64,000 nucleotides of DNA, taken from positions 6,960 through 70,959 of IMG/VR virus record IMGVR_UViG_3300038456_000361; one strand, given 5' to 3'. Shown here one piece after another: positions 2,501 through 57,423 of the stretch (the first letter of the stretch is position 1; every line of letters begins with the position of its first letter). The notes under the pieces are model-generated. The model searched no databases. It was not told the origin of the DNA and saw only the letters and a list, made by a program, of their open reading frames with translations. A program made the translations under genes and the position numbers. This DNA comes from a virus.

Positions 2501-2863
2501 ATGCCCATCGACTGGTTGCTAGACCCCGGGGTCCCCGCGGTGGCCCTCAAGGCCCCCGTTGTCGAGACCTGGCCGGACGACGTGGCCGGCGGGTTCACAT
2601 GGAACACGGCCTTGGGCGAGGAGCAGGGGCCCGTGTTCTGCGACACCGAAGCGGGCGTCGCCACGGCCTGGCACGCGGCGCTCGCGTCCCGGTACAAGGC
2701 CATCCACCTGAACGGGCGCCTCGTCAAGGCCGTGCACCTCCCGCATCTCTGCGGGTGCATCGGCTGTCACCCCGAGTACCACGGGCGCGCCCCTCGGGTC
2801 TACGGGAAGGGTGTCATGTACAGCAGCGACACGCGTTCGTGCCTCTGCCATCCTCGAGGCTAG
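2501..2863 (+). CDS. Hypothetical protein
   Basis: Fills the gap between minus-strand genes; start placed after the extended -10. Confidence 0.6.
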   Translation: MPIDWLLDPGVPAVALKAPVVETWPDDVAGGFTWNTALGEEQGPVFCDTEAGVATAWHAALASRYKAIHLNGRLVKAVHLPHLCGCIGCHPEYHGRAPRVYGKGVMYSSDTRSCLCHPRG

Positions 2864-11363: not shown

Positions 11364-11959
11364 TAGACGCCCTTATTGCTCTTTCTTAGATTCTCTTCAG
11401 CCCAGAGGGGCTGCAGATTGGTGTAGCGGAAGCACTGACGCTGTTGCTCAGGGTCACTCAGGTCAAAGTCTGCACAGGGGCGGATGTGGTCAATGTGCCA
11501 ACCACGGTATCCGTAGTTCTCCCAGGTCATATCCGGCTTGAACTGTGATTCCAGGTGCTTCTTGAGTTCCTCTGGAGTACATCCCAAAAGCTCAAGGGTC
11601 CTTGCGGACTTGGTAAATCCCTTGATTGCTTGACGAACGCGATGTCTGAGGTTTTTTGTCAATCTAAACGCCTCATCCACCTGAATGCGGGCCTTCTCGT
11701 AAACCCGCACCTTGACCTTGATTTCTTCGGTGTGAGCCGCATAATAGGCGGCGCTCGCGTCCTTCAGCTCTTCTTTGTTGGCCTCTCGCCAAATCTTATT
11801 TTGGGCCCTCATCTTGTCCTTATTGGCCTGGTAATAAGCGGCCTGGTAGGCCTTGTTCTTTTCAGAGTGGGCATTTCTGTAAGCCCGGCCCTGTTCAGGA
11901 TGAGCCATTCTGTAAGCGCGGTTCCTGGCGCGGTTCTTGGCGGGGTCCTTGTAGGGCAT
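11363..11959 (-). CDS. HNH-type homing endonuclease with N-terminal helical repeats
   Basis: MTWENYG..WHIDHIRPCADFDL...CFRYTNLQPLWAEEN; start reassigned to MPYKDP, 6 nt after the late promoter at 11966; low GC. Confidence 0.85.
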   Translation of the reverse strand: MPYKDPAKNRARNRAYRMAHPEQGRAYRNAHSEKNKAYQAAYYQANKDKMRAQNKIWREANKEELKDASAAYYAAHTEEIKVKVRVYEKARIQVDEAFRLTKNLRHRVRQAIKGFTKSARTLELLGCTPEELKKHLESQFKPDMTWENYGYRGWHIDHIRPCADFDLSDPEQQRQCFRYTNLQPLWAEENLRKSNKGV

Positions 11960-11976
11960 GTAACTTAGATTGCTGG

Positions 11977-12633
11977 CTACTTTCTGGAGGGTCGACGTGG
12001 AGCCTTTACTACAGAGAACGGGTCTTGAGCATCCGCTTCCATCTCCTCGGGGGTCATGAAGACGATACGTTCCCCCTCGGGCAACTTTGTGTCCACGGGG
12101 GCGTGTTTGAGCGTGGCCACCGGGGGCAGAGGGGGTGTAGGTGCCTGTTTTTGCACGGGCACGCTCGGCAGTTGGACCTCGCGGATGGGCTTGTTGGTGA
12201 GAATCCGGCCCCCGTCGGTGTCCGTGCTCGTGACCTTGGCTTCCTCGAGCTTTTCCTTCTTCTGCGCCTCGAGTTCCTTCTCTTTTTTGGCGATGACCTG
12301 CTTCTCGACCATGCGCGCGAAGCCCCAGTTGTCGGCCTCCTTGGCGTCCTCGGCTGCGGCGGCCGCGCGCTCCTCCTCGGGGGTGCGCAGGAGCAGTCTC
12401 AGCTCCGCCTCGAGCGCGGCTTCGTCCATTTCCTGGTAGCGGACCTCGTAGAACGTCCTCAGGGCCTCCTCGAGGGGGACCCGGCCGTCGATGGTGCCGA
12501 CCTCGTGCAGGGGCGTGCTGTAGCGCTGGCTGTACCACCGGCAGATGGTACGGAGCGTGAACTCCGCACTCTCCCCGTGCACGGCCAGCATGGCCTCCAG
12601 GCGGAGGGCCATCAGCTCTTGGATGTTAATCAC
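11977..12633 (-). CDS. Second tail assembly chaperone-like protein
   Basis: GTG start (VINIQELMAL); RWYSQRYSTP; position upstream of the tape measure. Confidence 0.55.
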   Translation of the reverse strand: MINIQELMALRLEAMLAVHGESAEFTLRTICRWYSQRYSTPLHEVGTIDGRVPLEEALRTFYEVRYQEMDEAALEAELRLLLRTPEEERAAAAAEDAKEADNWGFARMVEKQVIAKKEKELEAQKKEKLEEAKVTSTDTDGGRILTNKPIREVQLPSVPVQKQAPTPPLPPVATLKHAPVDTKLPEGERIVFMTPEEMEADAQDPFSVVKAPRRPSRK

Positions 12634-32023: not shown

Positions 32024-33619
32024 TTACCTGCCCCCGGGGTTCCTGGCACTGATGGCGTGCCCGTCCTGGCTCATGACCACGCCCGAGCGAACTTCCACCC
32101 AGCCCACGGCGCCGTCGGCGTGCCGGACCTTGACCTTGCCATCCTTGGCGCTGCCCACCGGGAGATTCAGGTGATGCGTGGCTGGCCCCGGGTCGGGCAT
32201 GGGCAGCTCGGCCTTGTTGTGGGGGGCGTTGAAGGGCTCGAAGACGACCTGCTTGCCGGTCATGGAGCGGTGGACCATCTTGGCTTGTACTGGCTGCACC
32301 TCGTAGCCGAGCATCCTCAGTTTGCGCATGCCCTCACGACCAAACCACTCCTCGGCGTGCTCGGGGCGCTCGAAGGCGTACAGGCCTTGTTTGCGCTCGA
32401 CCATCTTCGAGGCGCTGTAGTCATCGCTGAAGTCACGACGCGGCAGCGGCTGATTGTCTGCTGGCACCTTCAAGTCCGTAAGGGCGTCCATGTGCTGAGC
32501 ATCCATCTTGGCCCCACCGAGGCCTCTGGAGGCGCGGCTCTCGTATGGTCCCTCGCCGTTGCTGTTCTGCACCCTGTAGACCGTCATGGGCTTGGTGGTG
32601 CTGTCGTGGATGAGCGCCATCTTCTCGAGGGGCTCGGACTTGCCCATCTCCCCATCGGGAGACCCTGCACCGCTTTCAGCCGCAGCCTCGTCGGCAGACC
32701 CACCCGCGATGGAGCCCCCCTTCTCCCCATCGGGAGAACCATCCGGAGATTCCGGAGAGTTGCCCCCGGTGAGCTGCTTGGCCATGGCGACCATGGCCTG
32801 GACCGCGCCCAGGACGGCCTTGTAGACCTCCGGGGACTGGGCCTTGGCCTCCTCGAGGAGGGGTGCGGCCGCCTTGACCTGCTTGAGGACCTTGACGACC
32901 TGCTGGCGCATGGCCTCGCGGCCGCTCTGCTGCTGTTGCACCGCGAGGGTGGCCCCGTCCTGGCTTTTCTGCTTTTGCGCGTGCGCGTGCAGGCGCTGCT
33001 CCGCGGGGCTCTCCCCGGGCAACGGGGGCGCCTGGGGGGCGTCCAGGCGCTGCGCCGCGGCGGCACCGAGCTGCTGGCGCGCCTGCATGCCCTGGCTGCC
33101 GGACGCGCTCTGGGTCTCGTGCTGGGGCTGGGCCGGGCCCGGCGCCTCGGCCTTGGTCAGGTACTCGTCGGCGATTCTGCCGATGGGGTCCTGTCGGCCC
33201 TTCGCCCGCTCCTCGGCCGCCTCCTCGAGTTCCTCGCCGACGTCCGGGGTGTAGAAGCACACGCGGTTGCCCCCGTGCATCTTCGCGTAGGCCAAGGCCT
33301 TGACGCTCTCCGAGAGTTCGAGGCCCACGCCGACGCTGCAGCTGCAGCCCGTCGCGCCCCGGTACTGGGCCTGCATGCCGGGCAGCTCCCCGAGCTTCGC
33401 CGCGGGCACCTCCAGCGTTCCCTCGTCCCCGCCGAGGCTGATGATGGTGCCCCCGCTGTTCACGGCCCACGCGCCCCAGAGTTCGTTCCCCTGCTCGATG
33501 CCCTGGCTGAGCTTCCGCAGGCCATCTGCGTCGTTGTTGAGGCTCGCACGCTCGATTTCCTTGCCGATTTTGTCCCCGTTGAAGGAGACGTAGACTGAAG
33601 TGCCCAGATAGTCTGACAT
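32024..33619 (-). CDS. Polyprotein: mCpol (Cas10/GGDEF-like palm), helical linker, ART-like domain and small beta domain
   Basis: YVSFNGDKIG...IISLGGDEG...SVGVG...ALAYAK..G.NR; VYRVQN..GEGPY...AF...EEWF...QVVF; start set by CAATCTA-N6-ATG. Confidence 0.7.
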   Translation of the reverse strand: MSDYLGTSVYVSFNGDKIGKEIERASLNNDADGLRKLSQGIEQGNELWGAWAVNSGGTIISLGGDEGTLEVPAAKLGELPGMQAQYRGATGCSCSVGVGLELSESVKALAYAKMHGGNRVCFYTPDVGEELEEAAEERAKGRQDPIGRIADEYLTKAEAPGPAQPQHETQSASGSQGMQARQQLGAAAAQRLDAPQAPPLPGESPAEQRLHAHAQKQKSQDGATLAVQQQQSGREAMRQQVVKVLKQVKAAAPLLEEAKAQSPEVYKAVLGAVQAMVAMAKQLTGGNSPESPDGSPDGEKGGSIAGGSADEAAAESGAGSPDGEMGKSEPLEKMALIHDSTTKPMTVYRVQNSNGEGPYESRASRGLGGAKMDAQHMDALTDLKVPADNQPLPRRDFSDDYSASKMVERKQGLYAFERPEHAEEWFGREGMRKLRMLGYEVQPVQAKMVHRSMTGKQVVFEPFNAPHNKAELPMPDPGPATHHLNLPVGSAKDGKVKVRHADGAVGWVEVRSGVVMSQDGHAISARNPGGR

Positions 33620-33638
33620 AAGGCCTAGATTGCCCCTC

Positions 33639-33667
33639 TTGACAGAGGCACCGCTACCCGGTAGGCT
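33639..33667 (+). promoter_or_regulatory. Sigma70-type promoter TTGACA-N17-TAGGCT
   Basis: Back-to-back with the late promoter at 33626. Confidence 0.6.
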
Positions 33668-33709
33668 TGGAACCATGACCGACCAAGACGCTTTCGAGGG
33701 GAGCCCGAC

Positions 33710-44679: not shown

Positions 44680-46125
44680 CTACTTCTTGGCGGCGCTGTC
44701 CAGGGCGAAACGGGCCGCCACGTACAGATTGTGGAGCCGCTGTTGCACGGCCTGGGGGTCAACCCCGGTGGTGCTGCCGTCCTTGGCGGTCCCGAAGACG
44801 TTCACGTCCGGGGTGCCGGTGGCGAGGCTCTTCTGGAGCAGGGCCTTGCCGGCTTCGATGGCGGCCTTGTGCTCGGCCTCGGCGACAGCGGCCTGGGAGG
44901 CCAAGCCTTCCGACTTGGTCATCCCCGAGCACTTGCAGAGGTTGGTGGCCTTGTTGCACTTCTTGCACAGCTCGGACTTCCCTAGGTTGCCACAGCAGCA
45001 GGCGTCTGCCTTGGACCCGCACTTGCCGCACTTCTCCGACATCGAGAAGAAGTCGCGCTCGCCGGAGGTGCCACCCGGTTCGGACTTGCTGTAGCTGGCG
45101 CCCGAGGCGCCCATGCCCTCGCTGGTCTCGTAGCCGCCCTTGCTCTGGGCGGAACGCACCGCGGAGATTCCGGATTCATCGGCCTTTTCGACCGAGCTGG
45201 CCGTGGAGGTCTCGCTCGAGCCCGACCGGCTCGAGGAACTCCCCTCCCAGGGCTTGCTGCCCTTGCCGACGCTGGAGCCGCTCGAGGCGGAACCCTCGGC
45301 AGACGAATCCTCGTCGATGCGGCCGCCGCCGGTACCCTTCTGGGCGGCGTGCACGGCGCGCAGGCCGGAGTTGTCGGCCTTCTCGACCTTGGCGGTCTGG
45401 GCGACGCTGTTCGGGGTCAGGTCCAGCTGCTGCCCCTCCTTGGTGAGGCTCTCCGCCTTCGCCATGGCGGCGTGACGGCTCTCGAAGTACCCGAGGGCGC
45501 GCTGGCTGAAGCCGTCGCTCTTGACGAGCACGTGCTGGCTCGGGCGGGCGCCGTGGGGCACCTCCCAGGTCCGGTAGAGGACGCCCTCGGCCTTGTCGAG
45601 GTGCTCGTGGAAGCCCCCGCTGTTGTCGTCCTTGCGCGTCCACTCCAGATTCAGGGTCTCGTTGTTGTCGGCCATGTGCTTCTCCTTCTTTCCTAGATTG
45701 TCCAGGACGAAAATGTCACCCCTGTGGGGCTTGAATGAGTAGAACTTCTGTCTCTCGCTGCCAGATGCGGCGTCAAGGTGCTGCTGCACTTCCTTGGGAA
45801 CGGGCCCGACGGCGTCATGCCCGAGCTGCTTGCAGTGCATCTGGTACATGAGGCCGTGCTTACGGGCTTCGCGGTTGTCCCCCGCGGCCTCGGCGAGTTT
45901 GATTCCTTGGAGGTGGTGCGCGGCGGCCTTGGCGTGCGTCTGGTGCTTGTACTCGCCGTAGGCCTTGTCCTCGGCCTCGTGACGCGGGAGTTTGCCATCA
46001 AATTCTGCGAGCGCGGCCTCGCGGTCAAGCTCGGTGCCATGGCTCGCCTCGGTGACGTCGCGGCCAGCCCATTGAGGGCGCAGGTGCTTGTGCTGCTCTT
46101 TCGGCTTGTGGCTCTCATCCGGCAT
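44680..46125 (-). CDS. Putative internal head protein with many xxK|AE/SE motifs
   Basis: Start set by TAATCTA-N6-ATG; internal promoter and start at 45675. Confidence 0.65.
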   Translation of the reverse strand: MPDESHKPKEQHKHLRPQWAGRDVTEASHGTELDREAALAEFDGKLPRHEAEDKAYGEYKHQTHAKAAAHHLQGIKLAEAAGDNREARKHGLMYQMHCKQLGHDAVGPVPKEVQQHLDAASGSERQKFYSFKPHRGDIFVLDNLGKKEKHMADNNETLNLEWTRKDDNSGGFHEHLDKAEGVLYRTWEVPHGARPSQHVLVKSDGFSQRALGYFESRHAAMAKAESLTKEGQQLDLTPNSVAQTAKVEKADNSGLRAVHAAQKGTGGGRIDEDSSAEGSASSGSSVGKGSKPWEGSSSSRSGSSETSTASSVEKADESGISAVRSAQSKGGYETSEGMGASGASYSKSEPGGTSGERDFFSMSEKCGKCGSKADACCCGNLGKSELCKKCNKATNLCKCSGMTKSEGLASQAAVAEAEHKAAIEAGKALLQKSLATGTPDVNVFGTAKDGSTTGVDPQAVQQRLHNLYVAARFALDSAAKK

Positions 46126-46142
46126 GGGTCCTAGATTACCGT

Positions 46143-47135
46143 CTACTCCTGCCGGGCTAGCCCCTGCAGACCCTCGAGGAATACCTCGATGTTCTCGGGT
46201 TCCCACTCGTGGCCGAAGGTGACCGTGTACCCGTCTTGCGTGCGCGTCGCGGATGCGCTTTTAGCCAATTCGAGGTAGCACCCACACCCAACCAGGCGCT
46301 CGCCCCGGAACTGGGGGAGCCCGCACACGGGGCACGGGCGCTGGGCCTGGCTGCGCGTGAGCTTGATTTGGGGCGCCGTGTCCGGCTGTTTGTCCGGTTG
46401 TGCTCCCCCCGAAGCCGGGGGTTTCACTGAGGGAATCTTGGCCGCGCGCCCCACCGTGTCCAGTTTCGTGTCCGGTTTCTTCTTGGCGTTGTTGACCTTG
46501 GGCTGCTTGATGGGGGCCACCGCGGCCAGGGGCTTGCCCTGTTTCATGGGTGCGGCCGCGGGTCCCGGCGGCTCGGCCTTGGAGCACTTGAAGCACGTGT
46601 CGCTATCCACGTGTGCCCCCATGGTGCCCTTGCACTTCTGGCAGTGAGTGACACGCACGCCCTTCTGCAGGTAGCCGTCACCAACCCACTCGAAACTCCT
46701 GGCCTCCTCGGCCCTGTTGATTTCCGCCACGGCCTTGCGTGCCTTCGCGAGGAGGTCGATGCTCCTCCCGAGACGCTGCAGGTCCACGTCCCTGAGGCTG
46801 GGGTCGAGGGCGTCCGCGTCCACGCCCAGGGCGATGCCGATGCTCGCCGCGAGCTGGAGGCGCGTGGCCCCCTCGAAGCCGTAGCTGGCGTCCCCGACGG
46901 AGATGACGCCCGTGAGGGTGTCCGTGGGCTCGCCCTTGCTGAAGCTCAGGTAGCTGTTGCTCACGCCCGGAAGCTCGCCCTCGTAGTCGCAGCCCTGGAG
47001 CTGGAGCCAGGAGAGGAGCGCGCGCGGCACGAGCACGGGCGCGAGCACGGGGGAGCGCTCCGCGGCCTTTGCGAGGGCGGTCGCGCCGTCCTCACCGAGG
47101 GTGGCTGCCAGAAAGCCGTAGCGAATCACGTCCAT
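46143..47135 (-). CDS. Late protein with zinc-ribbon motifs and LxK motifs
   Basis: CAATCTA-N6-ATG; CQKC..CFKC; CPVCG..GCGC. Confidence 0.65.
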   Translation of the reverse strand: MDVIRYGFLAATLGEDGATALAKAAERSPVLAPVLVPRALLSWLQLQGCDYEGELPGVSNSYLSFSKGEPTDTLTGVISVGDASYGFEGATRLQLAASIGIALGVDADALDPSLRDVDLQRLGRSIDLLAKARKAVAEINRAEEARSFEWVGDGYLQKGVRVTHCQKCKGTMGAHVDSDTCFKCSKAEPPGPAAAPMKQGKPLAAVAPIKQPKVNNAKKKPDTKLDTVGRAAKIPSVKPPASGGAQPDKQPDTAPQIKLTRSQAQRPCPVCGLPQFRGERLVGCGCYLELAKSASATRTQDGYTVTFGHEWEPENIEVFLEGLQGLARQE

Positions 47136-47153
47136 AGGGACTAGATTGCGGGC

Positions 47154-48071
47154 TTATCTTGGCCCGAACCCGCCGCCACGTGGCGCGAGTATCTGCCGGA
47201 GGTTCGACTGCCCCAGGCTGGCGGGCAACCCGGTCACGGGTTTCCCCGGGGACTGGTCCTCGCCCTTGTTGTCCTGGTTCTCGAACACGTACTCGCGCTG
47301 GAGGAGCGCCTGCTGGGGCATGCGCACCGTGTGCCGGATGCCCGTCGCGGGGTCCTCGAGCTGGGTGACCCGGATTTCGTGCGGGAGGTCCTTCACGTAC
47401 CAATATGGCCGGTAGCAGTAACGGATGCTGCAGATGCCCCCCGTGCCCGCCTCGGGGTTTGACACGGGCTGGCGGCCGCCCTCGAGCCACCTGAGGAGGC
47501 CATTGTCGATGGTGAAGTCCTGGCCCTGTACGAGGTCCCGACCCTGGCTGTCCACGAGCTGCTCCACGCGCACAAGCGGGTAGTCGAGCTTGTCCGTGGG
47601 TCCCCCGCAGGCCTCGAAGAGCTGCCAGTTGCCGACGATGATGGTCTCCTCGGCGAGGTACATGCGGTCATAGGGCAGGAGCAGACACTCGAAGGGCTCC
47701 CCGCCGGCCGAGAGCACGTCGTAGGTCCGCGGGGGCGTGACCATGATGTTCGCCTGGTTCACGATGCCGATGTCCAGGACCTGGGGGTTGTCGCTGTTGT
47801 TGCTGACGGCGCAGGTGATGGGTGCCACGAGTTTGTACAGGAAGCCGTTACTGCACTCGCCGTGCTCGCCATGCGGGTGGCGCTCGTCGTCGGCGTCGAC
47901 CATGCCAATGGGGCACTTCATCGCTCGCCAGTGGACCAAGGTTAGCCCGTGAGACCTGAGCATGTTATCGAACGCATCTGCGTCGAAATTTACAGCCTCG
48001 GTGGGGAGCTGCGTATCCTGGACTTGGGAGAATTGTTGCTTGGGAAATGGCTTGAAGGGCGGGCGTGGCAT
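47154..48071 (-). CDS. Neck / head-closure protein
   Basis: WRAMKCP...CSNGFLY; SIRY.YRP.WYV....HEIR, resembling SPO1-type neck proteins. Confidence 0.65.
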   Translation of the reverse strand: MPRPPFKPFPKQQFSQVQDTQLPTEAVNFDADAFDNMLRSHGLTLVHWRAMKCPIGMVDADDERHPHGEHGECSNGFLYKLVAPITCAVSNNSDNPQVLDIGIVNQANIMVTPPRTYDVLSAGGEPFECLLLPYDRMYLAEETIIVGNWQLFEACGGPTDKLDYPLVRVEQLVDSQGRDLVQGQDFTIDNGLLRWLEGGRQPVSNPEAGTGGICSIRYCYRPYWYVKDLPHEIRVTQLEDPATGIRHTVRMPQQALLQREYVFENQDNKGEDQSPGKPVTGLPASLGQSNLRQILAPRGGGFGPR

Positions 48072-48103
48072 CTGGGATGGCCCTCCAGGGACCGATGTGG
48101 CGG

Positions 48104-48319
48104 CTAGCGGTTGTAGGTGATGAGGGCGTCCTTCTCGAGGACGGCGTCGTTGAGAATCTCGACGGTCCCCTCGGGAGTGAGCCTGTAGTCGGTGCCGCTC
48201 ACGAGCGTGGTGGCACCCGCGTCGACGATGACGCTCTCGATGTTGATGGGCCGGAGCACCAGGCGCGTGTTCTTGTAGAGCTTGGAGACTTCGACCTGTC
48301 GGATTCCGATGATGGACAT
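48104..48319 (-). CDS. Small beta-rich structural protein
   Basis: LVSGTDY.L..EGTV; AAGGAG SD. Confidence 0.55.
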   Translation of the reverse strand: MSIIGIRQVEVSKLYKNTRLVLRPINIESVIVDAGATTLVSGTDYRLTPEGTVEILNDAVLEKDALITYNR

Positions 48320-48323
48320 GGTG

Positions 48324-48632
48324 TTACTCCTTCGCCTCGAGGGCGTTGAAACGGTCCGTGAGGTCCTCGTAACTTTGCAGAAGGTGCGCGTACGCCTCAA
48401 CGGGCACGTAGTCGGCCTTGCTGAGTTCGGTGATTTCCAGCTCGGGCTCGCGCTTGCGGGCGATATGACGTGCGATGGCGCGGTGGCTGCCGGTGCCGAA
48501 GGTGTGCTGTTCGCCGTTCTTGAGGCCCACCAAGAGATGAAATCCTCCGGATGTTGCAATTTCGAACACGGGCTTGCCCTTGAAGAGGCCGACTTGTTTG
48601 CGGTAGGCCAGGTGCTTTAGAGATATATCCAT
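48324..48632 (-). CDS. Hypothetical late protein
   Basis: TAATCTA-N6-ATG; LSKAD motif. Confidence 0.65.
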   Translation of the reverse strand: MDISLKHLAYRKQVGLFKGKPVFEIATSGGFHLLVGLKNGEQHTFGTGSHRAIARHIARKREPELEITELSKADYVPVEAYAHLLQSYEDLTDRFNALEAKE

Positions 48633-48637
48633 GACCC

Positions 48638-51600
48638 TTAGATTACTGGCGCGAGGGCGTTACTGGTCTCCCAGCTGTCCAGGCCCACCCACATGCGGTT
48701 GATGGTCAGGTCCACGGGCGTACCCTCACGGATGGTGGTCTTGAGTTTGGCGAGGCGCCGTAGGCACGGCCCAGGGTCGAGGCCGAAACGCGCCATGATG
48801 GTCTCGAGAGCGTCGGCGTGCAGGCCGTTCACCCAATCCCGGAGCAGGGCCTCCACGTGCGCATCCGCACGGGGGAGACGCCGGAGCTTCTCCTCAGGGT
48901 CGAGGGTGTTGAATTTTCGGGGGGACCACGCGCGCAGGTAGTAGGCGACAAAGGACGAGCGGTCGTGCCCGGGGTTGAAGCCGTTGCCCGCGAACGCGCT
49001 CCCGTGGTCGATGAGGTACATCCTCTCGGGCTGGCCGTTGTCCGCGAGGATGTTCTGCCCGTGCCTGTCCACGTTCCCGAGGATGCCGTCGAGCACGGCC
49101 CACTTGTGCAGGGTGCCCGTCTTCAGGTACGAGTGCAGGCTCCAGAGCACGTGCATGCTGTCCTCCTTGGCGCGCTTCTCCAGGGACCGGAACTCAGGTG
49201 GCAGGAACTGCATGGCCGCGACGGGCTTGCCGTCGATGAGGAGCAACTCGCACTTGGGGACGCTGTCCCCGAGCCCGAAGACGGTCTTCGCGCACGCGTA
49301 AAAGCAGGCCTCGCGGGCGCTCTGACTGCCCTGGGTCTCGCGGATGCCCGCCGCGGGGCTCGGAGAGCCCGAGCCGGGCTTGAGCAGCCACACGTCATCG
49401 CTGTCGGGGTCGTGCGCGACGAGCGTGCCCTTGCTGTGCTTGCCCTTGAGCTGGATGGCCTCGACGCGCTTGTGCCGGAAGGCGGCGCGCACGGCCTCGG
49501 CTACGCCGTCGGCGCTCGCCGTGCCTGCGACGATGCTCCCGGGCGTGCGCGGGCGGTCCTGGGGCTCGAAGTTCTGCTCCCCCTTGCCGAGACGCTCCTC
49601 CTCGTTGTGGACGGCGAAGTGGGAGGGGCGTGCGAGTTTGCGCTCCTGCTGCTGGGTCGCCACCACGGAGAGGATGCCCTGCAGGGACAGGCGGTGCTCC
49701 TCGTCGGGCTCCATGCCGTAGGCGCGCAACGCGGCCGCGTCGCGGTCTCCGTCCTCCTCCCAGACGAAGCGGCGCATGTCCTCGGGCGCGAGCCGGGCCT
49801 TGCCCCCGGAGAGGAAGCGTGCCGCCTCGAAGACCTGGTCCTCATCGAGGTGGTGTCCCTCGAAGTCGGCCACGAAGTCGGGGTCCGCGAGGGGCAGGAG
49901 GTCATGGCTGCCCCCGTCCTGGCCGCGGATGGCGTTGCCCGGCTGGTGCGCGCCCTCGGCGCTCACGCTCTCGTAGCTCTGGTCGGGGTTGTGCTGGTCC
50001 GGGGTGTCGATGGCGCCCGGCATGCCGTTCACGTGCCCGTACTCGGCCTTGGCGAGGTTGCGTCCACGGGCCCAGGGCTGGATGCTGCGCGCCCAGTCCG
50101 CGGGGGCGACCGCGGCGGCCGTCAGCAGGGAGTTGTGGGCGCGCTTCATCTGCGTCCCGAACTCCTGGACGGCCTCGGGGGTGTGACCCTTGCACGTGTG
50201 GTACGCGGCGCGCTCCCCGGGGTTGTTCAGGTAGTTCAGCATCAACGCCATGCGCTCCTCAAAGGGGTAGGGGTGCTCGTGCTCGAGCTGGCCATTGGAG
50301 GCGTGCGTGACGCGCGTAGTGGGGGCGCGGTCCCGCATGAACGTGTCCACGTACTCACGCTGGTGCTTGGGGATGGAGTGGTAGAGGTTGTGCGCGAACG
50401 TGAGGCGCCCCACGGGCCCGTACTTCGCGTTCACGCGGTTGAGCATCTGGTGCAGGTCCTCGTGGGGCTTGGTCGACTGACCGGACCTGGGGTTCGAACT
50501 CGCCCAGGTGTTGATGTTCTTGGGGTCATGTTTGACGCCCCGGAGGGCGGCGTCCTTGCTGTAGGCGATGTTCGTCCTGCCCGTGCCAGCCCCGGGACCC
50601 GTGTACGTGGCCCCGAGGTCCGATGCGTTCTCGCTCGCGATTTGCTCCGCCTGGTCCGCGCGGCCGTTCGTGCGCACCGCGTTGACCACGGCCCGGTTCT
50701 TGATGTTGAACTCCCGCGGCGTGTGTATGACGGGCGTCTCCCGGGGGTTGTCCCCGAGGCCCATCTTCGGGAAGGTGGGCGTGGTGCGGTCCTTCTGGAG
50801 GAGCCACTCCTGGGCCTCTCGGGCGAAGCCCGCGTCCAGCTGGGTGCCGACCGCCTTCCGGAGGCCCGCGGGCAGGTGCGGGTGCTCGGCCACGAGCGCC
50901 TTCGTGGCGGCGCTGACGCCCGGGTTCACGAGGATGGCCACGGCCTGGTCCTGGGTCAACGCGGGGTTCGTGGCCACGCCCTCGAGGACCTCGGGGTCAC
51001 CTCCGTCGAGGAGCTGCTGCAGCTGGTCCGGCTCGAGGTTCGGGCTCGTCGCGAGCGCGCGCCTGACCAGGGGGTTCGTGTCCGCGAGGGCCTGCTCGAT
51101 GTGCGTGGCGTCCGCCAGGGGGTGCCTGGCCGCCTCTATGCGCACGTTCGGGGCCGAGTGCGCCAACGCCTGGGTGAGGACCTCGGGGTCCACCAGGGCG
51201 TGTTTCAGCGCAGCCAGGGCCACCTGCGCGTCGGGGTCCTCGACGCCCCGGCGCACGTCCGCCTGGGTCACGCCCGGGAGCTTGAGGGCCATCATGCGCT
51301 CGGCGCGCGCGGGATGCTGCATGAGGGTCTCGACATCAGTCTTTTCAAGGACTTCCCCGGCTGATGGGTAATTACGGGCACTCTTGGCCAGGGGCTTCAC
51401 GTCCAGGGGGTAGAAGACCGCGACGGCGTTGGGGACCGTGGGGTGGTAGTTCTTGTACCCGTGGTATTTCTTACGGATTTTCCGCTCCACCTCATCGAGG
51501 TCCGCGGGCTCGTAGATGCGGCCCTCGTCGGTCTGGCGCCACTTGGGGCGCATGTACCCCTCGGGGTCCTTGCCGATGTCGTAGAGTTTCCACCCCTTGG

Positions 51601-53104
51601 GGAGCTTGGCGCGGTACTTCTGGTACTGGCCGGCCTTGAACGTGCTCTCGGGCTCGGTGCCGGCGTGGTAGAGGTAGGTGCGGGGGATGCGGTTCTGGCG
51701 CTGGGCCTCGCCCCCGTGCAGGCCGAACGCGCCAGTACCCTGCATGCTGGGGTCGAGGCGCTTGAGGCCGCGCATGGGGCTGTAGTGGTCGAACTCCTCC
51801 TGGGGGGCCTCGGGCTCGGCCTTACCGAAGACAGGCTTGTTGCGGTATGAGAGGACGTGCTTGACCTCTTGCTGGTGCTGTGCCTGGGTGTCGGTGATGC
51901 TCGCGGGCGCGTTCTGACGTGCCAGGTCTCGACGCTGGATATTGTCTCCCAGGGCGTTGACGCGGGCATCCACGTTCCCCGGCAGGGTGCGGTCGTAGTG
52001 GCTCGTGGGCCCGATGACCTTCCGAGGATAGTGCTGGTGCACCTCGAACTCGGCCATGTTGGGGACGATGACCTCTTCCTCGGGGGAGTGGCTATCATGC
52101 CCGGCCTGCGTGGGAGAGAAGCGGATGTGATGTTCCGGCACCCAGGCGCTGACGACCCCTCCGGGGCGGTTGAAACCCTGGGCGATGCCGAGGTTTGGTG
52201 TCCAGCTACTGGCAGAGGTCGTGGCAAAGCGCTTTCCGTCGGGGCTCATACCGCGGTTGCGCTCGACGTCGCCCATGCCCCTGTGGAGCAGGAACTCACG
52301 TTTCTGGGTCTTGGGGTCGATACGGACCTGGGTACTACCGTGCAGGCCATGTAGGAGCCTCTGGGTGTCCTCGTGGGGCATTCCCTCGACAGCCAGCCCT
52401 TCTCGAGCGTCTTTGTCCTGGAGGCCTACCCAGTCTGCGGCGTGCCCATAGGTCTCGTCGCTGATATTACCCTTGCCCTCACGGTTACCCTCGGAGGGCC
52501 AGCGCTTGGTGGCGACGCCCTTCTGCAGCTCGGACTTGAAGGTGGTGGCGGGGTGAGCCACGGGCTCGACCTGCATCTGCAGGTGCGGTGCCTGGAAAGG
52601 CGCCAGGACCTCGCCCAGGGGCTGCTCAGGTCCTTCCTCGACCTCGTTCCAGTCCTGGAGGCCGAGCATGCGCAGGACCACGTTCTTGGGCGAGTGGAGG
52701 TTCTCGAGGATGTACGAGGGAATGAACTCCGGGTCCACCCACTCATGGTCGTGGAACTCTCCATCGGGGTCGTTGTCGAACTTGACGTCCTGGCCCGGGG
52801 GGATGTTACAGCGGAAGGCGTGCACGCGGATGGTGTCTCCCCGCCAGCCCGTGACGACGTCATTGCCGAGCGCCTTCAGGGTCTCGCTCTCGGGGATGAG
52901 GCCCACCTCCTCGAGAAGCTCCCTGGCTGCGCAGCGCTCGGGGCGCTCGTCGGGTTCCAGGTGCCCACCTGGTAAAGACCATTTCCCGTCATCCCTCCTT
53001 AGGCCGAAAAGAAGTTTGCCGTCCGGATTAAAGACTGCTACCGAGGCCACTTCCCTCTCGGGGTAGTCCTTTTGTTCCGGGGCAATATCGCCTTTACGAA
53101 GCAT
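48638..53104 (-). CDS. Polyvalent protein: Nudix, ART-like x2, HEAT-like repeats, zincin, PI3/4K/HipA-like kinase
   Basis: GGHLEPDE...ARELLEEVG; LHRG..SSWT..EEEVIV; HYS..LDP..GTG..RTYLY; LA..PNL repeats; HEDLH; LLKP..GNVDRHGQN..LIDHG. Confidence 0.8.
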   Translation of the reverse strand: MLRKGDIAPEQKDYPEREVASVAVFNPDGKLLFGLRRDDGKWSLPGGHLEPDERPERCAARELLEEVGLIPESETLKALGNDVVTGWRGDTIRVHAFRCNIPPGQDVKFDNDPDGEFHDHEWVDPEFIPSYILENLHSPKNVVLRMLGLQDWNEVEEGPEQPLGEVLAPFQAPHLQMQVEPVAHPATTFKSELQKGVATKRWPSEGNREGKGNISDETYGHAADWVGLQDKDAREGLAVEGMPHEDTQRLLHGLHGSTQVRIDPKTQKREFLLHRGMGDVERNRGMSPDGKRFATTSASSWTPNLGIAQGFNRPGGVVSAWVPEHHIRFSPTQAGHDSHSPEEEVIVPNMAEFEVHQHYPRKVIGPTSHYDRTLPGNVDARVNALGDNIQRRDLARQNAPASITDTQAQHQQEVKHVLSYRNKPVFGKAEPEAPQEEFDHYSPMRGLKRLDPSMQGTGAFGLHGGEAQRQNRIPRTYLYHAGTEPESTFKAGQYQKYRAKLPKGWKLYDIGKDPEGYMRPKWRQTDEGRIYEPADLDEVERKIRKKYHGYKNYHPTVPNAVAVFYPLDVKPLAKSARNYPSAGEVLEKTDVETLMQHPARAERMMALKLPGVTQADVRRGVEDPDAQVALAALKHALVDPEVLTQALAHSAPNVRIEAARHPLADATHIEQALADTNPLVRRALATSPNLEPDQLQQLLDGGDPEVLEGVATNPALTQDQAVAILVNPGVSAATKALVAEHPHLPAGLRKAVGTQLDAGFAREAQEWLLQKDRTTPTFPKMGLGDNPRETPVIHTPREFNIKNRAVVNAVRTNGRADQAEQIASENASDLGATYTGPGAGTGRTNIAYSKDAALRGVKHDPKNINTWASSNPRSGQSTKPHEDLHQMLNRVNAKYGPVGRLTFAHNLYHSIPKHQREYVDTFMRDRAPTTRVTHASNGQLEHEHPYPFEERMALMLNYLNNPGERAAYHTCKGHTPEAVQEFGTQMKRAHNSLLTAAAVAPADWARSIQPWARGRNLAKAEYGHVNGMPGAIDTPDQHNPDQSYESVSAEGAHQPGNAIRGQDGGSHDLLPLADPDFVADFEGHHLDEDQVFEAARFLSGGKARLAPEDMRRFVWEEDGDRDAAALRAYGMEPDEEHRLSLQGILSVVATQQQERKLARPSHFAVHNEEERLGKGEQNFEPQDRPRTPGSIVAGTASADGVAEAVRAAFRHKRVEAIQLKGKHSKGTLVAHDPDSDDVWLLKPGSGSPSPAAGIRETQGSQSAREACFYACAKTVFGLGDSVPKCELLLIDGKPVAAMQFLPPEFRSLEKRAKEDSMHVLWSLHSYLKTGTLHKWAVLDGILGNVDRHGQNILADNGQPERMYLIDHGSAFAGNGFNPGHDRSSFVAYYLRAWSPRKFNTLDPEEKLRRLPRADAHVEALLRDWVNGLHADALETIMARFGLDPGPCLRRLAKLKTTIREGTPVDLTINRMWVGLDSWETSNALAPVI

Positions 53105-53723
53105 AGGTGAAAACGCGCCCCCCAGCGTGGCTCCGGCGACCCTTAAGAACCGCTACGATATTCCCAGCAGGAATGCCCAGTTGTCGAGCCGCAGTAGAAA
53201 CTCCGGAATAACGATTTCCATCCTGGTCCACAACTGGGCGCTGCAGATGTGCATTCGCAATCGTATGAGTGACCGACATCCTGACACGCGTCTCGGGGGA
53301 TACTACATGTGGCCCCCTGGTGGCCTCTCTCTTTGCAATAGATTCTGGGGAGAGCTTCCTCCCTCTGAGAGCCGACGACATCTTCAGGCGAACCCCCGCG
53401 GTTGGATTCAGGTTCCCGTCCCCACCGGCAGTTCCGTTTGTGAGCTTGTACCCCATTTTCTTGAAGTAGGCTATCCAGTGCATCTCTGCCTCGGGCAAGA
53501 TGGCTGGGTCATCAAAACTCTGAATGACGACCACCTCAGGTTGCGCCCCAGTGGACAAAAGTTGGCGTATCCAGTTTGCCTTGTGGGTGTTTCCGTCTTC
53601 CCTGAGAGACCACCCCTTAGAGTGCTCTCGGGGGCGTCGCATGCCATTCTTGCTCAGGCCTATGTAGCGGAGTTGGCGGTCACGGGGGTCTACTAGCCCG
53701 TAGATGATAGCGATGTCGCCCAT
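53094..53723 (-). CDS. GIY-YIG homing endonuclease with NUMOD-type tail
   Basis: IIYGLVDPR...RYIG; E.HWI; LTN.TAGGDG. Confidence 0.88.
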   Translation of the reverse strand: MGDIAIIYGLVDPRDRQLRYIGLSKNGMRRPREHSKGWSLREDGNTHKANWIRQLLSTGAQPEVVVIQSFDDPAILPEAEMHWIAYFKKMGYKLTNGTAGGDGNLNPTAGVRLKMSSALRGRKLSPESIAKREATRGPHVVSPETRVRMSVTHTIANAHLQRPVVDQDGNRYSGVSTAARQLGIPAGNIVAVLKGRRSHAGGRVFTYAS

Positions 53724-53740: not shown

Positions 53741-54163
53741 CTATACAAACACGCGCGAGGCCTTAGCCTTTGCCTCGATAACGCCCCTCAAGGAGGGTTC
53801 GACGAAGACCGCGGCGGCGTCCTTGCGCACGTCGGGGTTGTACGCGCGCCAGTCGTCGCCGTGGCCGATGCGCAGGTGGCACTCGGCCGGGCCCATGCAG
53901 AGCGTGATGAGGTTGCGCCGGTCCAGCTCCAGCTCGGGCCGGAGGTGGAAGGGGCGCACGTGATGCACCTGCAGGCGCGCCGTGCCCCGGCAGGCCTGGC
54001 AGAGCGGGTACTGCGCGAGGTGCTCCCGTTCGACGCGCCCCCACCCTCCGCTCCGAGGTGGCTCCCCGGACAGGAAGGTGGCGAAGGGGCTCCCGCGTTT
54101 CGCGCGTTCCCGCAGGGCCGCGAATGATACCCTATAGAGATGCTTAAGCAGCAGGAATGACAT
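53741..54163 (-). CDS. HNH endonuclease
   Basis: CQAC..LQVHHVRPFHLRPELELD..NLITLC...CH...GH. Confidence 0.85.
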   Translation of the reverse strand: MSFLLLKHLYRVSFAALRERAKRGSPFATFLSGEPPRSGGWGRVEREHLAQYPLCQACRGTARLQVHHVRPFHLRPELELDRRNLITLCMGPAECHLRIGHGDDWRAYNPDVRKDAAAVFVEPSLRGVIEAKAKASRVFV

Positions 54164-54175
54164 CTTAAAGGGTGT

Positions 54176-55039
54176 TTAGAATGCGGTTGTGACGATGCCT
54201 TGTCCGAACATCCTACGGAGTTTCTTGATGATTTTGTCCTTTTCCTTCTCGAGCTGGTCGACGCGCGCGGTCAGGAGCGCGATGTTGGGCGCGCCCACGC
54301 TCTGGCTCATGCCGTCCATGCCGAGGCTGTGCGAGGTCAGGAACATGCACGTGGCCACGATTTTCTCGAGCACCTGGTACGCGGCCTGGGCGCCGATGGC
54401 CTCGTTGACGACCACGGGGAGGATACCGTTCGGCCAGCCCGTCGTGTAGGTGATGCGCCAGTACGCGGGAATCCAGCTATTCTGGGCGAGGATGGAGAGG
54501 AACACGGCCCCGCCCGCGGACTGCGAGGGGATGAAGCCCCCGTTCTGCACGGCCACGTTCAGGGGCACGATATTGATTTGGCCCCAGCTCAGGTACGCGG
54601 TCTCAATCCAGTCCAGGGGGACGATGTAGACCTCGATGTTGTTCGCGGGCACGATGGAGAACTCTTCGATGCTCTGCACGGGCTTGTGTCGCGTCTTCAG
54701 GTACCCGAAGCTCGAGTAGTCGAAGCGGTTGAACTCCTGTTTCTCGGCGTGCTGGACGGGCATGATGTCGATGCTCGCCTCGGTCTCGATGTTGAGGATG
54801 GCGCGCCGGATTTCCTCCTCGAGGTCGGTCTTCGACCAGGTCGCGTACTTGCCCGTGAAGGGGTCCTTGATTTTGGACACGAGGGGGATGCCCTTGAGGA
54901 ACCTGTTAACGAGCTGCTCGGGCGTGAGCAGGGGCTCGAGGCGGGCGAACCCGCTGTCCACCTGGCCCGTGGGGAGGTTCGCGCCCAGGCCTGGCTTGGA
55001 GCTGTACCCGCCGTTGTCACTGCCGTTGTAGATGGCCAT
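54176..55039 (-). CDS. Head-tail adaptor (neck) protein
   Basis: P.YWRITYTTGW; S.SLGMDGMSQS. Confidence 0.7.
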   Translation of the reverse strand: MAIYNGSDNGGYSSKPGLGANLPTGQVDSGFARLEPLLTPEQLVNRFLKGIPLVSKIKDPFTGKYATWSKTDLEEEIRRAILNIETEASIDIMPVQHAEKQEFNRFDYSSFGYLKTRHKPVQSIEEFSIVPANNIEVYIVPLDWIETAYLSWGQINIVPLNVAVQNGGFIPSQSAGGAVFLSILAQNSWIPAYWRITYTTGWPNGILPVVVNEAIGAQAAYQVLEKIVATCMFLTSHSLGMDGMSQSVGAPNIALLTARVDQLEKEKDKIIKKLRRMFGQGIVTTAF

Positions 55040-55984: not shown

Positions 55985-56725
55985 TCAGGCGGGCATCTTG
56001 TCGCCCTTCTGGATGTTCTCCCACCACCACAGGGGCTGCAAGTTCGTGTAGTGGAAGCATTGGCGCTGCTGCCTCAGGTCGCTCAGGTCGAAGCTCGCGC
56101 AGGGGCGGATGTGGTCGACGTGCCAGCCTTTGACGCCGTAGTTCTCCCAGGCCATGCCCTTCTTAAAGAGTTTTTGAAGATGGGCTCGAAGAAATTCCAC
56201 ACTACATCCAACAAGCTCAAGGGTGCTGGCCATCTTCTTCTTGCCGCGAAGAGCCAGTCGGATGCGGGCCCGTAAGCGGTGGCGCATCCTATAGTCAGGG
56301 TCCTCGAGACAACGCCGCTGCGCATACGCATTGTTTCTGGCTGTGATTTCCTTACGATGGGCTTTTCGGTACTCGGCCTCTTTGCGTAAAATCTTCTTAA
56401 GATTGGCCTTACGGTATGCGGCGTCACGAACCCTCTTTTCCTTGCGATGAGCCTTGTTGTACGCCCTGGACTTAGCCTTAAATCTCTCGATATTGGTTCT
56501 GTAGTAGGAGGCTCTTTTAGTCCTGATTTTCTCTGAGTTGGTTTTGTAATAAGCGGCCTTCTTGGAACCAATCTGCTTAGCATGGGTACGATAGTATGCA
56601 GCACTCTTGAGCTTAAGCTCCCGAGCATGAGCCTTGCGGTACGCCCGTGACTGAATACGGAGCTTCTTGGAATGAACCCTTCGGTATTCTCTCTGATAGG
56701 CCGCCGTCTTCTCTTTTTTTGTCAT
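55985..56725 (-). CDS. HNH-type homing endonuclease with 15-aa tandem repeats
   Basis: WENYG..WHVDHIRPCASFDL...TNLQPLW; start MTKKEK; low GC. Confidence 0.85.
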   Translation of the reverse strand: MTKKEKTAAYQREYRRVHSKKLRIQSRAYRKAHARELKLKSAAYYRTHAKQIGSKKAAYYKTNSEKIRTKRASYYRTNIERFKAKSRAYNKAHRKEKRVRDAAYRKANLKKILRKEAEYRKAHRKEITARNNAYAQRRCLEDPDYRMRHRLRARIRLALRGKKKMASTLELVGCSVEFLRAHLQKLFKKGMAWENYGVKGWHVDHIRPCASFDLSDLRQQRQCFHYTNLQPLWWWENIQKGDKMPA

Positions 56726-57423
56726 CGCCTGTTCTCCAAGGCCGCCACCAGCCACGGCTCGAGGGCTTCCTCGTAGGCCGCCCGGGGCTCCGGGGACGCG
56801 GTGTTGTACCGCGACCACCAGTTCCGGGGCTCGTCGGCACCGTACTCGCGCTGGAGGATGGCGAGCACGCGAGCCCCGAACCACAGCGCGTACGCGTCGT
56901 CCTCGACCAGGCGGTCGGGCTCCAGGTCCCAGTGGTCCACCCATACCGTGTTCACCTGGGTGAGGCCGTGGTCGCACACGGGCACGCTAGCACGGTTCCG
57001 GGCCACCAGGTAGCAGGACAGCGTGTGCGCCCTGAAGTTGCTCTCCTGACGAACTACCGCCGCCAGCAGCAGGGGGTCTACCCCGAAGTGGCGTGCCGCG
57101 AAGACAATGCCCCGGGCGAGCTGCCATGCCCTCGAAGCCCCTACTTGCGGGGCGACTTCTTGGACGTAGGCTTTGACTTCTTGGGCGCCGGTTTGGGACC
57201 TGCCTTGCGCTTGACGCGGAGCAGGAGATTCTTGACCTGCTCGTGAATCGTGGCCACATGGCTGACTGGCATCTCGCGGAAGCGCTCCTCGAGTGTCCGC
57301 AACTTGCGCGGTGGGGGATTCAGGAACTCGTCCAGAGGGTCTCGGGGTTGCAGGGGACTGACCCCCACTGGAAGCGGCGAGGGTGGCTGCGAGGGCGAGG
57401 GCGGCGGCTGTTTGAGGAACCAT
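56722..57423 (-). CDS. Lytic transglycosylase (SLT domain) with signal peptide
   Basis: GVDPLLLAAVVRQESNF, GLTQVN, RYN; AAGGAG SD. Confidence 0.85.
   Translation of the reverse strand: MVPQTAAALALAATLAASSGGQSPATPRPSGRVPESPTAQVADTRGALPRDASQPCGHDSRAGQESPAPRQAQGRSQTGAQEVKAYVQEVAPQVGASRAWQLARGIVFAARHFGVDPLLLAAVVRQESNFRAHTLSCYLVARNRASVPVCDHGLTQVNTVWVDHWDLEPDRLVEDDAYALWFGARVLAILQREYGADEPRNWWSRYNTASPEPRAAYEEALEPWLVAALENRR

Follow-up and report, generated by a model that had tools for sequence, protein, structure and literature searches.

A seven-module polyvalent-type gene of a Myxococcus phage Mx1-like virus carries an L-x-K motif at its module joints and may be a substrate of the head-maturation protease

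Background

Why should a single viral gene encode a train of modules with such different chemistries, and why does one short motif recur at the joints between them? We address this question for the gene at 48638..53104 (-) of the window, the whole stretch of DNA analyzed here, which comprises 64,000 nucleotides of the IMG/VR virus record IMGVR_UViG_3300038456_000361 (positions 6,960 to 70,959). The gene (P0001) is one uninterrupted open reading frame (ORF) of 1488 codons, and its product is predicted to be a polyvalent-type precursor. An earlier note on this DNA had described a 1488-residue ORF with six modules (Nudix, ADP-ribosyltransferase (ART), ART-like, HEAT, zincin and kinase), nearly all of them bracketed by a motif of the form L-x-K. 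The ORF and the motif sites lie at the coordinates given there and most of the listed modules stand, while a seventh conserved module (residues 1020-1174) had been missed. On balance, we think it probable that its product is an internal head (ejection) protein of the polyvalent kind, cut by the head-maturation protease into individual enzymes that are delivered to the host along with the DNA.

The codon-position guanine-cytosine (GC) content of the ORF (GC3 0.89, GC2 0.44) is as expected in a genome of 65% GC, and the ORF is therefore taken as a real gene. The window belongs to a single Mx1-like viral contig of 70,959 bp, rated 43% complete. Myxococcus phage Mx1 is the sole phage record with protein-level similarity, and megablast of the gene against phage records gave no match. 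The gene order around 48638-53104 is syntenic with Mx1, where the counterpart is a gene pair, a 1479-aa “NUDIX hydrolase” and a separate 619-aa “kinase”, with the major capsid gene on its upstream side and structural genes on its downstream side. The Mx1 stretch from the capsid gene to the counterpart gene also holds genes for thymidylate synthase and a deoxynucleoside monophosphate (dNMP) kinase.

Over-representation of the L-x-K motif

Written as L-x-K-[AGSTD], the motif has nine matches in the protein of the window, starting at residues 2, 193, 501, 572, 586, 748, 769, 1017 and 1172, where 2.0 are expected; a count of nine is attained in 0.05% of 2000 shuffles. A wider pattern adds F-G-K↓A-E at 426 and I-G-K↓D at 510 (the arrow marks the proposed cut, with P1 the residue ahead of it and P1' the residue after it). 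The matches at 501 and 510 are probably not sites: both lie inside folded module 3, and their lysine is kept in only 3/13 and 4/13 aligned relatives, respectively. The sites listed in the earlier note are all present, and the matches that it had omitted, at 501 and 510, are these two poorly conserved, in-domain ones. A strict form of the motif, [LMIFV]-x-K↓[AGST]-[ED], occurs five times in the protein (0.59 expected; reached in 0/2000 shuffles). Across 77 non-identical proteins of the family the strict form occurs 197 times, 4.5-fold above the 44.1 +/- 6.3 of shuffled sequences (maximum 63 in 200 shuffles), while its mirror image occurs 61 times and a variant with Arg 43 times in the same proteins. 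Leucine at P3 is enriched 4.3-fold, being found in 116 of 301 K[AGST][ED] sites. Among the 70 called genes of the contig, 14 of the 19 strict sites fall in four adjacent genes at 44680-53104 that hold 12% of the residues.

Eight candidate sites, all encoded on the minus strand, can be followed along the chain. L-Q-K↓G (P1 = K195; 52517..52528) stands at the Nudix/ART joint, and F-G-K↓A-E (K428; 51818..51829) at the joint between the ART and a second ART-fold module. L-A-K↓S (K574; 51380..51391) has a motif at most 12 residues off in 6/11 aligned relatives. It is followed by L-E-K↓T-D (K588; 51338..51349) at the start of the HEAT module, with a P1 lysine in 6/11. The HEAT module ends with L-R-K↓A (K750; 50852..50863; motif within 12 residues in 6/13). 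The HExxH module starts after L-Q-K↓D (K771; 50789..50800), where all 12 aligned relatives have lysine at P1 and 11 have a hydrophobic P3, and ends with L-A-K↓A-E (K1019; 50045..50056; motif within 12 residues in 10/15). The last site, L-G-K↓G-E (K1174; 49580..49591), marks the joint of module 6 and the kinase and has a motif within 12 residues in 26/45. On visual inspection, relatives have x-x-K↓[AST] ahead of their HEAT modules, and the residue ahead of the second ART-fold module is lysine in relatives P0007 and P0009.

Two further ORFs of the contig were examined for the motif. The 508-aa ORF at 44680-46206 (-), three genes downstream of the 1488-aa gene, holds seven strict sites, a Cys-rich segment and Ser/Gly stretches of low complexity. 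Neither PHROGs nor Pfam gave a match for it, and it has the look of an internal head or scaffold-type protein that is heavily processed. A 2523-aa ORF (G000:C1:1314-8885 (-); window 1-1926), which runs past the window start, has no strict site and three L-x-K-[AGSTD] matches.

Module boundaries and module exchange

BLAST segments against 22 relatives start or stop near residues 141-200, 193-196, 421-440, 584-594, 746-778, 1003-1013 and 1045-1120. At the eight candidate sites, a motif is found at most 12 residues away in 60 of 110 aligned relative-by-site cells, compared with 187 of 3535 at in-domain control positions. Family-wide, a motif is no more than 12 residues away for 186 of 652 BLAST breakpoint clusters where 91 are expected, a count that is noisy. 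The variation of modules at the motif among homologs, which the earlier note had proposed as a check, is what the relatives display: modules vary, are permuted and are split there. In P0007 the ART is placed after the HEAT module, and in P0008 the Nudix module is joined directly to the zincin; other relatives have in their place GNAT or ParB, long HEAT arrays, a second type of ART or a segment that by eye resembles lytic transglycosylases. In 37 viral contigs the locus is a fusion or consists of two genes, the kinase gene then starting at module 6, and in Mx1 and many of the viral contigs the kinase is split off as a gene of its own. ART modules of unrelated viral contigs also open with L-x-K↓G. 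A scan of viral contigs with the single 1488-aa protein returned nothing.

Sharing of a module through the motif is also seen within the contig. The C-terminal module of a protein encoded at 32024-33676 (-) matches a module of P0010 (41% identity, E 2e-33), and the alignment starts eight residues ahead of the motif lysine in both proteins and runs through the motif. This 550-aa virion-region protein has an N-terminal mCpol (minimal CRISPR polymerase) nucleotide-cyclase domain (PF18182, E 3.4e-14) and two motif sites.

The motif in head proteins

The same motif recurs in head proteins of the relatives. L-x-K↓A is present at residues 9-16 in 12/12 capsid proteins (Mx1 and 11 relatives), and the capsid sequence is variable ahead of it and highly conserved after it, which is the pattern of a short propeptide. 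Ala/Pro-rich scaffold-like proteins, whose genes directly precede the capsid gene, have two to six sites each, and the Mx1 portal has two. The “putative prohead protease” of Mx1 (L002:13002-16721, 1239 aa) and its 963-aa homolog in L015, the two protease homologs examined, both carry, immediately behind the protease domain, L-x-K↓A followed by a copy of the N-terminal sequence of the capsid protein. Such a capsid-mimic element is what one would expect of a protease that cleaves itself. The Mx1 protease also shows weak similarity to the kinase region at its C-terminus (27% identity, E 2e-4). That the motif is shared by capsid, scaffold-like and protease proteins is suggestive of processing by the head protease.

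The HExxH module of the chain was considered as the general maturation protease of the group and rejected, since its profile matches two of the five complete genomes of the group; the positive control, the window's own genome, was matched at E 2e-104.

Identity of the modules

The seven modules are described here in their order along the chain, all on the minus strand. The short motifs read from the sequence in the earlier note (the Nudix box, LHRG/SSWT/EEEVIV, HEDLH, LLKP, GNVDRHGQN and LIDHG) are all seen in the translation, and its Nudix, R-S-E ART, ART-like and kinase assignments agree with the searches below. Module 1 (residues 5-195; 52520..53092; 21.5 kDa if cut) is firmly assigned by its sequence as a Nudix hydrolase, with the domain at 17-128 followed by a linker of ~45 residues. 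It matches PF00293 (E 3.9e-18; 66.2 bits vs a Pfam cut-off of 21.1), phrog_1198 (E 1.2e-18) and many solved Nudix enzymes in the PDB (best E 5.7e-7), and the Nudix box, which we take to be GX5EX7REUXEEXGU, is intact in the translation. Among the matches is phrog_15528 (E 8.4e-10), in which a Nudix domain is fused to a portal protein.

Module 2 (residues 196-428; 51821..52519; 25.9 kDa) is supported as an R-S-E type ART by an AlphaFold (AF2) model and a conserved triad. In an alignment of the window protein with 26 relatives from viral contigs, on which the model was built, R59 (the Arg of LHRG) is invariant, S84 (the Ser of SSWTP) is near-invariant, and E-x-E-V-I-V is aligned in most of the 27 sequences. 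Module 2 and module 3 were folded separately, because a composite alignment of both misplaced the last ART strand. The model of module 2 (residues 217-375) has a predicted local distance difference test score (pLDDT) of 81.7 and a predicted template modeling score (pTM) of 0.74, and it places the Arg and Ser on strands 53-60 and 83-86 and E-x-E just ahead of strand 139-143. In a wide VIA structural search, nearly all of the top 50 rows are chains of the ART fold, headed by diphtheria toxin (Z 6.4; 102 residues, root-mean-square deviation (rmsd) 3.4), RhsP2 (Z 5.9) and KptA (Z 5.7), with C3bot2, iota-like and VIP2 chains further down (Z 5.0) and PARPs also present. All Z-scores are below 8, and the assignment draws on the uniformity of this list and on the triad, not on the height of Z. 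Weak top rows of Foldseek agree with the ART fold (best E 1.2e-3). A BFVD fold search gave no row at E 0.001 or better, and several of its weak rows are annotated viral ADP-ribosyltransferases, T4-type ModA among them. The segment has no Pfam match and its PDB profile search was empty; one of the 27 members matches the Pfam family DRAT (E 6.3e-4). Some relatives (L016, L018, L008, P0011 and P0023) have a different ART-like module in place of the R-S-E ART, with conserved W-V-P-x-K and G-P-E-[DN]-E-F-L.

Module 3 (residues 429-574; 51383..51820; 17.0 kDa), which the earlier note had marked by the letters HYS...RTYLY, is supported by its AF2 model as a second ART-fold domain, closest to ParT/RES/MbcT. 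The model (residues 427-590, 10 sequences) has a pLDDT of 78.2 and a pTM of 0.70, and in the wide VIA search it is matched best by ParT (Z 6.9), Xre-RES (Z 6.5) and MbcT (Z 6.2), with diphtheria-toxin homologs coming next. The top rows align 113-123 residues at an rmsd of 4.5-4.7 and an identity of 5-11%. Here, too, the call follows from the uniformity of the list, all Z being below 8. Foldseek gave no significant match (best E 0.19), and among Atlas features 5 of 30 matches are clusters with PF18760 ART-PolyVal. Conserved residues are H14, S16, R49, Y51, Y53 and E60. The module has no Pfam or PHROG match, a scan of viral contigs with its alignment returned nothing, and a search for stand-alone relatives of 84-270 residues found none. 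Its structural neighbors include 9k3a_B (Z 5.2), a chain from the pre-ejectosome of cyanophage A4, and 6kyf (Z 4.8), an anti-CRISPR entry; ART-fold domains thus do occur in solved phage ejection and counter-defense proteins.

The next two modules were accepted in part, as the HEAT repeats named in the earlier note score below the Pfam cut-offs and the zincin is recognized by motif only. Module 4 (residues 589-750; 50855..51340; 17.1 kDa) shows weak sequence similarity to HEAT/LRV-like alpha-solenoid repeats (HEAT E 3e-4, 21.2 bits vs 23.5; LRV E 1.1e-3, 19.6 vs 21.6), and the relatives P0013 and P0017 carry the precomputed HEAT families PF02985 and PF13646. Module 5 (residues 772-1019; 50048..50791; 27.6 kDa) is a putative zincin metallopeptidase of the HExxH...EE type. 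H117, E118, H121, E185 and E186 are invariant in an alignment of seven sequences, the HExxH-to-EE spacing is 64 residues in the window protein, and a conserved P-x-F-P-x-L-G follows directly after the site at the module's N-terminus. The module has no Pfam match (all seven members having been scanned), no PHROG match and no PDB profile match, and its Atlas search was uninformative, with one LPD23 lead among 30 matches.

Module 6 (residues 1020-1174; 49583..50047; 17.1 kDa) is delimited by BLAST high-scoring segment pairs (HSPs) as a conserved module ahead of the kinase in relatives. In 20 of 22 relatives the HSP that reaches the kinase begins at or before query residue 1120, and the other two, P0002 and P0024, are without a kinase HSP. 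Stand-alone kinase genes (~440 aa) begin with this module, for which no Pfam or PHROG match was found; a PHROG search of four segments likewise returned nothing.

Module 7 (residues 1175-1488; 48641..49582; 34.5 kDa) is supported, at a borderline level of sequence similarity, as a PI3/PI4-kinase-like kinase. PF00454 is matched with 28.1 bits by the segment alone (cut-off 27.1) and with 25.2 bits in the whole protein, and a 36-sequence profile finds the catalytic loops of PI3K delta, ATM, Tel1 and Vps34 in the PDB at E 6e-3. In the 36 sequences K67, E90, D171, N176 and D191 are invariant and H173 is near-invariant; the invariant residues are those expected of an active kinase. The profile matches 2166 representative proteins at E <=1e-3, 859 at 1e-10 and 424 at 1e-30. 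Of the 150 best representatives, 146, in proteins of 244-2445 aa, have a match that ends at most 20 residues from the C-terminus, so that the kinase appears as a constant C-terminal unit behind a variable N-terminal cargo.

Proposed processing and alternative explanations

Under the internal head protein explanation, the 1488-aa precursor with its seven modules would be synthesized late and built into the prohead, where the head-maturation protease would cut after the lysine at module-boundary sites resembling [LMIFV]-x-K↓[AGST]-[ED]. Cleavage is predicted to release seven separate proteins (17-35 kDa) along with three short peptides (4, 14 and 21 residues). Once freed, the proteins would be delivered into the host together with the DNA and would target host proteins or nucleotides as infection begins. 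The earlier note had suggested that the chain carries writers (ART, kinase) and a possible eraser (Nudix) of host modifications or nucleotide signals, in analogy to T4 Alt; such a function, with delivery in an Alt-like manner, is plausible. A broader and more tentative proposal, to which we would give rather less than an even chance, is a plug-in cargo system in Mx1-like phages. L-x-K-flanked enzyme modules would be inserted upstream of the constant unit of module 6 and kinase, this unit would carry the train into the prohead, and the head protease would free the enzymes for injection. The motif may then double as a recombination joint for shuffling and as a processing signal, making for a programmable capsid cargo.

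Several observations weigh against processing at these sites. The motif is loose, with A-L/M at P1'/P2' in capsids, G-V before the ART and D/N/T before the zincin, and the strict form fits only five of the nine sites of this protein listed in the earlier note. Column-exact conservation of the P1 lysine is partial (3/13 at site 750, 5/15 at 1019 and 21/45 at 1174), and the residue ahead of the second ART-fold module is Arg, not Lys, in P0005 and P0006. Only 29% of the BLAST breakpoints lie near a motif, and these observations are not independent of one another. The contig, 43% complete, has neither a protease gene nor a capsid gene. The label of the Mx1 “prohead protease” comes from a PHROG match at E 1e-4 over 47 residues, and the protein has no Pfam or PDB match. 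The fold matches of the ART modules are of middling height (all Z under 8, and Foldseek E no better than 1.2e-3), values that can reflect a common arrangement only, and the zincin is assigned from the invariant HExxH...EE motif only. Packaging and cleavage are what we infer only, and so are the identity of the cutting protease, ejection, and every enzymatic activity and target.

Partial, column-wise conservation of a loose motif would also fit a chain that stays uncut, in which L-x-K serves as a conserved linker or docking element of one large multi-enzyme scaffold, packaged or not; the virion RNA polymerase of N4, a polyvalent protein, is packaged unprocessed (PMC5512222). We regard this as unlikely, given that the capsids of 12/12 relatives have the motif exactly where a variable N-terminus gives way to conserved sequence, that the motif recurs in scaffold-like proteins, which are not multi-enzyme chains, and that the mirror motif is not enriched (61 vs 197). 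If the chain is cut, the cut could come from its own HExxH module, with L-x-K being the site of the zincin and not of the head protease. The invariant HExxH...EE residues and the conserved P-x-F-P-x-L-G right after the site at the zincin N-terminus would suit such autoprocessing, a role given to zincin-like domains of polyvalent proteins in PMC5512222. We nevertheless give it little credence. The zincin profile is found in only two of five complete genomes, its positive control being matched, about half of 20 relatives lack a zincin HSP, and genomes free of zincin matches (Mx1 and L025, for example) still have the motif in capsid, scaffold-like and polyvalent proteins.

Equally improbable, in our judgment, is that the modules form a late intracellular enzyme set, for nucleotide/NAD metabolism or for counter-defense in replication, which is neither packaged nor injected and whose structural-gene setting is incidental. 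With thymidylate synthase and a dNMP kinase encoded in this part of Mx1, the region is not purely structural. Set against this are the occurrence of the motif in head proteins, the existence of Nudix-portal fusions (phrog_15528), the ART-fold domain in a solved phage pre-ejectosome (9k3a_B), and the virion-type character of the motif-rich downstream neighbors.

If the head-protease explanation is true, the Mx1-like phages would have a new head-protease specificity, a cut after Lys in L-x-K as opposed to the Glu-specific sites of T4 and phiKZ/SPN3US, and with it a simple rule for turning polyvalent proteins into separate injected enzymes. The uncharted enzyme families involved (R-S-E ART, RES-like ART-fold, HExxH and PI3/PI4-kinase-like) would then be candidates for early host takeover or counter-defense. 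A constant C-terminal kinase with variable N-terminal cargo could serve for loading foreign proteins into capsids. Mx1 is a cultivable phage of a laboratory host, so the rule is directly testable there.

Relation to known systems

The closest published concept, closer than the T4 Alt analogy and not named in the earlier note, is that of the polyvalent proteins of Iyer, Burroughs, Anand, de Souza and Aravind (2017; PMC5512222). Like these, the chain described here joins enzymatic domains of disparate chemistry in one polypeptide (ART, kinase and metallopeptidase; GNAT and ParB in relatives). Polyvalent proteins are likewise encoded beside phage packaging or late genes, and their injection with the DNA and proteolytic processing were predicted (PMC5512222). 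That concept calls for at least two disparate domains in a phage late-gene context; the gene of the window has seven modules and a structural-gene setting. Differences lie in the domains and in the proposed processing. The ARTs described there are distinct from the R-S-E Alt/VIP2 clade and the kinases are a truncated Ser/Thr/Tyr clade (PMC5512222), whereas we find an R-S-E ART and a PI3/PI4-kinase-like domain that is almost always C-terminal. Autoprocessing by zincins was proposed there (PMC5512222), whereas here a regular L-x-K that capsid and scaffold-like proteins also carry suggests the head protease. The text of PMC5512222 has Nudix once and “Myxococc” and “HEAT” never; its supplements may hold such architectures.

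In T4, gp21 cuts after L/I-x-E, and Alt is a packaged protein that is processed by the head protease. T4 Alt-like proteins, SPN3US and phiKZ offer a second parallel: head-packaged enzymes, an R-S-E ART among them, are cut by the head protease at the short motif that also matures the capsid, and are injected. P1 is Glu in those phages, in contrast to Lys here, and one N-terminal targeting peptide is removed there, whereas the sites predicted here would split a train of seven modules. In SPN3US, gp245 cleaves behind a P3-x-P1 motif whose last residue is Glu, and the propeptides taken off are 20-254 residues long (PMC10052503).

The best structural matches of the module 3 model, the ParT, Xre-RES and MbcT toxins, belong to toxin-antitoxin pairs, in contrast to a domain of a phage structural-region polyprotein that shares 5-11% identity with them. 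The kinase resembles PI3K, PI4K and PIKK enzymes in its catalytic loop G-N-x-D-R-H-x-x-N, its DFG-like I-D-H-G and the upstream invariant Lys and Glu, but it is a domain of ~310 aa only, without helical and C2 accessory domains. The Mx1 and myxophage literature examined makes no mention of Nudix, kinase, polyvalent or ADP-ribosyl, and, within the literature that could be searched, no paper was found on a Lys-specific prohead protease site or on these Mx1 genes.

Neighboring genes

Same-strand neighbors of the 1488-aa gene match virion families, namely phrog_1004 (virion structural protein; 47154-48071) and phrog_772 (tail fiber; 54176-55039), and a baseplate protein gene lies further off at 2860-5385. 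Directly upstream of the 1488-aa gene are two homing/HNH endonuclease genes on the minus strand, 53094-53723 (phrog_314) and 53741-54163 (phrog_144). In Mx1 the homolog of 54176-55039 abuts the Nudix gene with no endonuclease pair in between, and the two endonuclease genes are likely mobile insertions. Two more endonuclease VII-like ORFs are found at 55985-56977 and 11363-12538.

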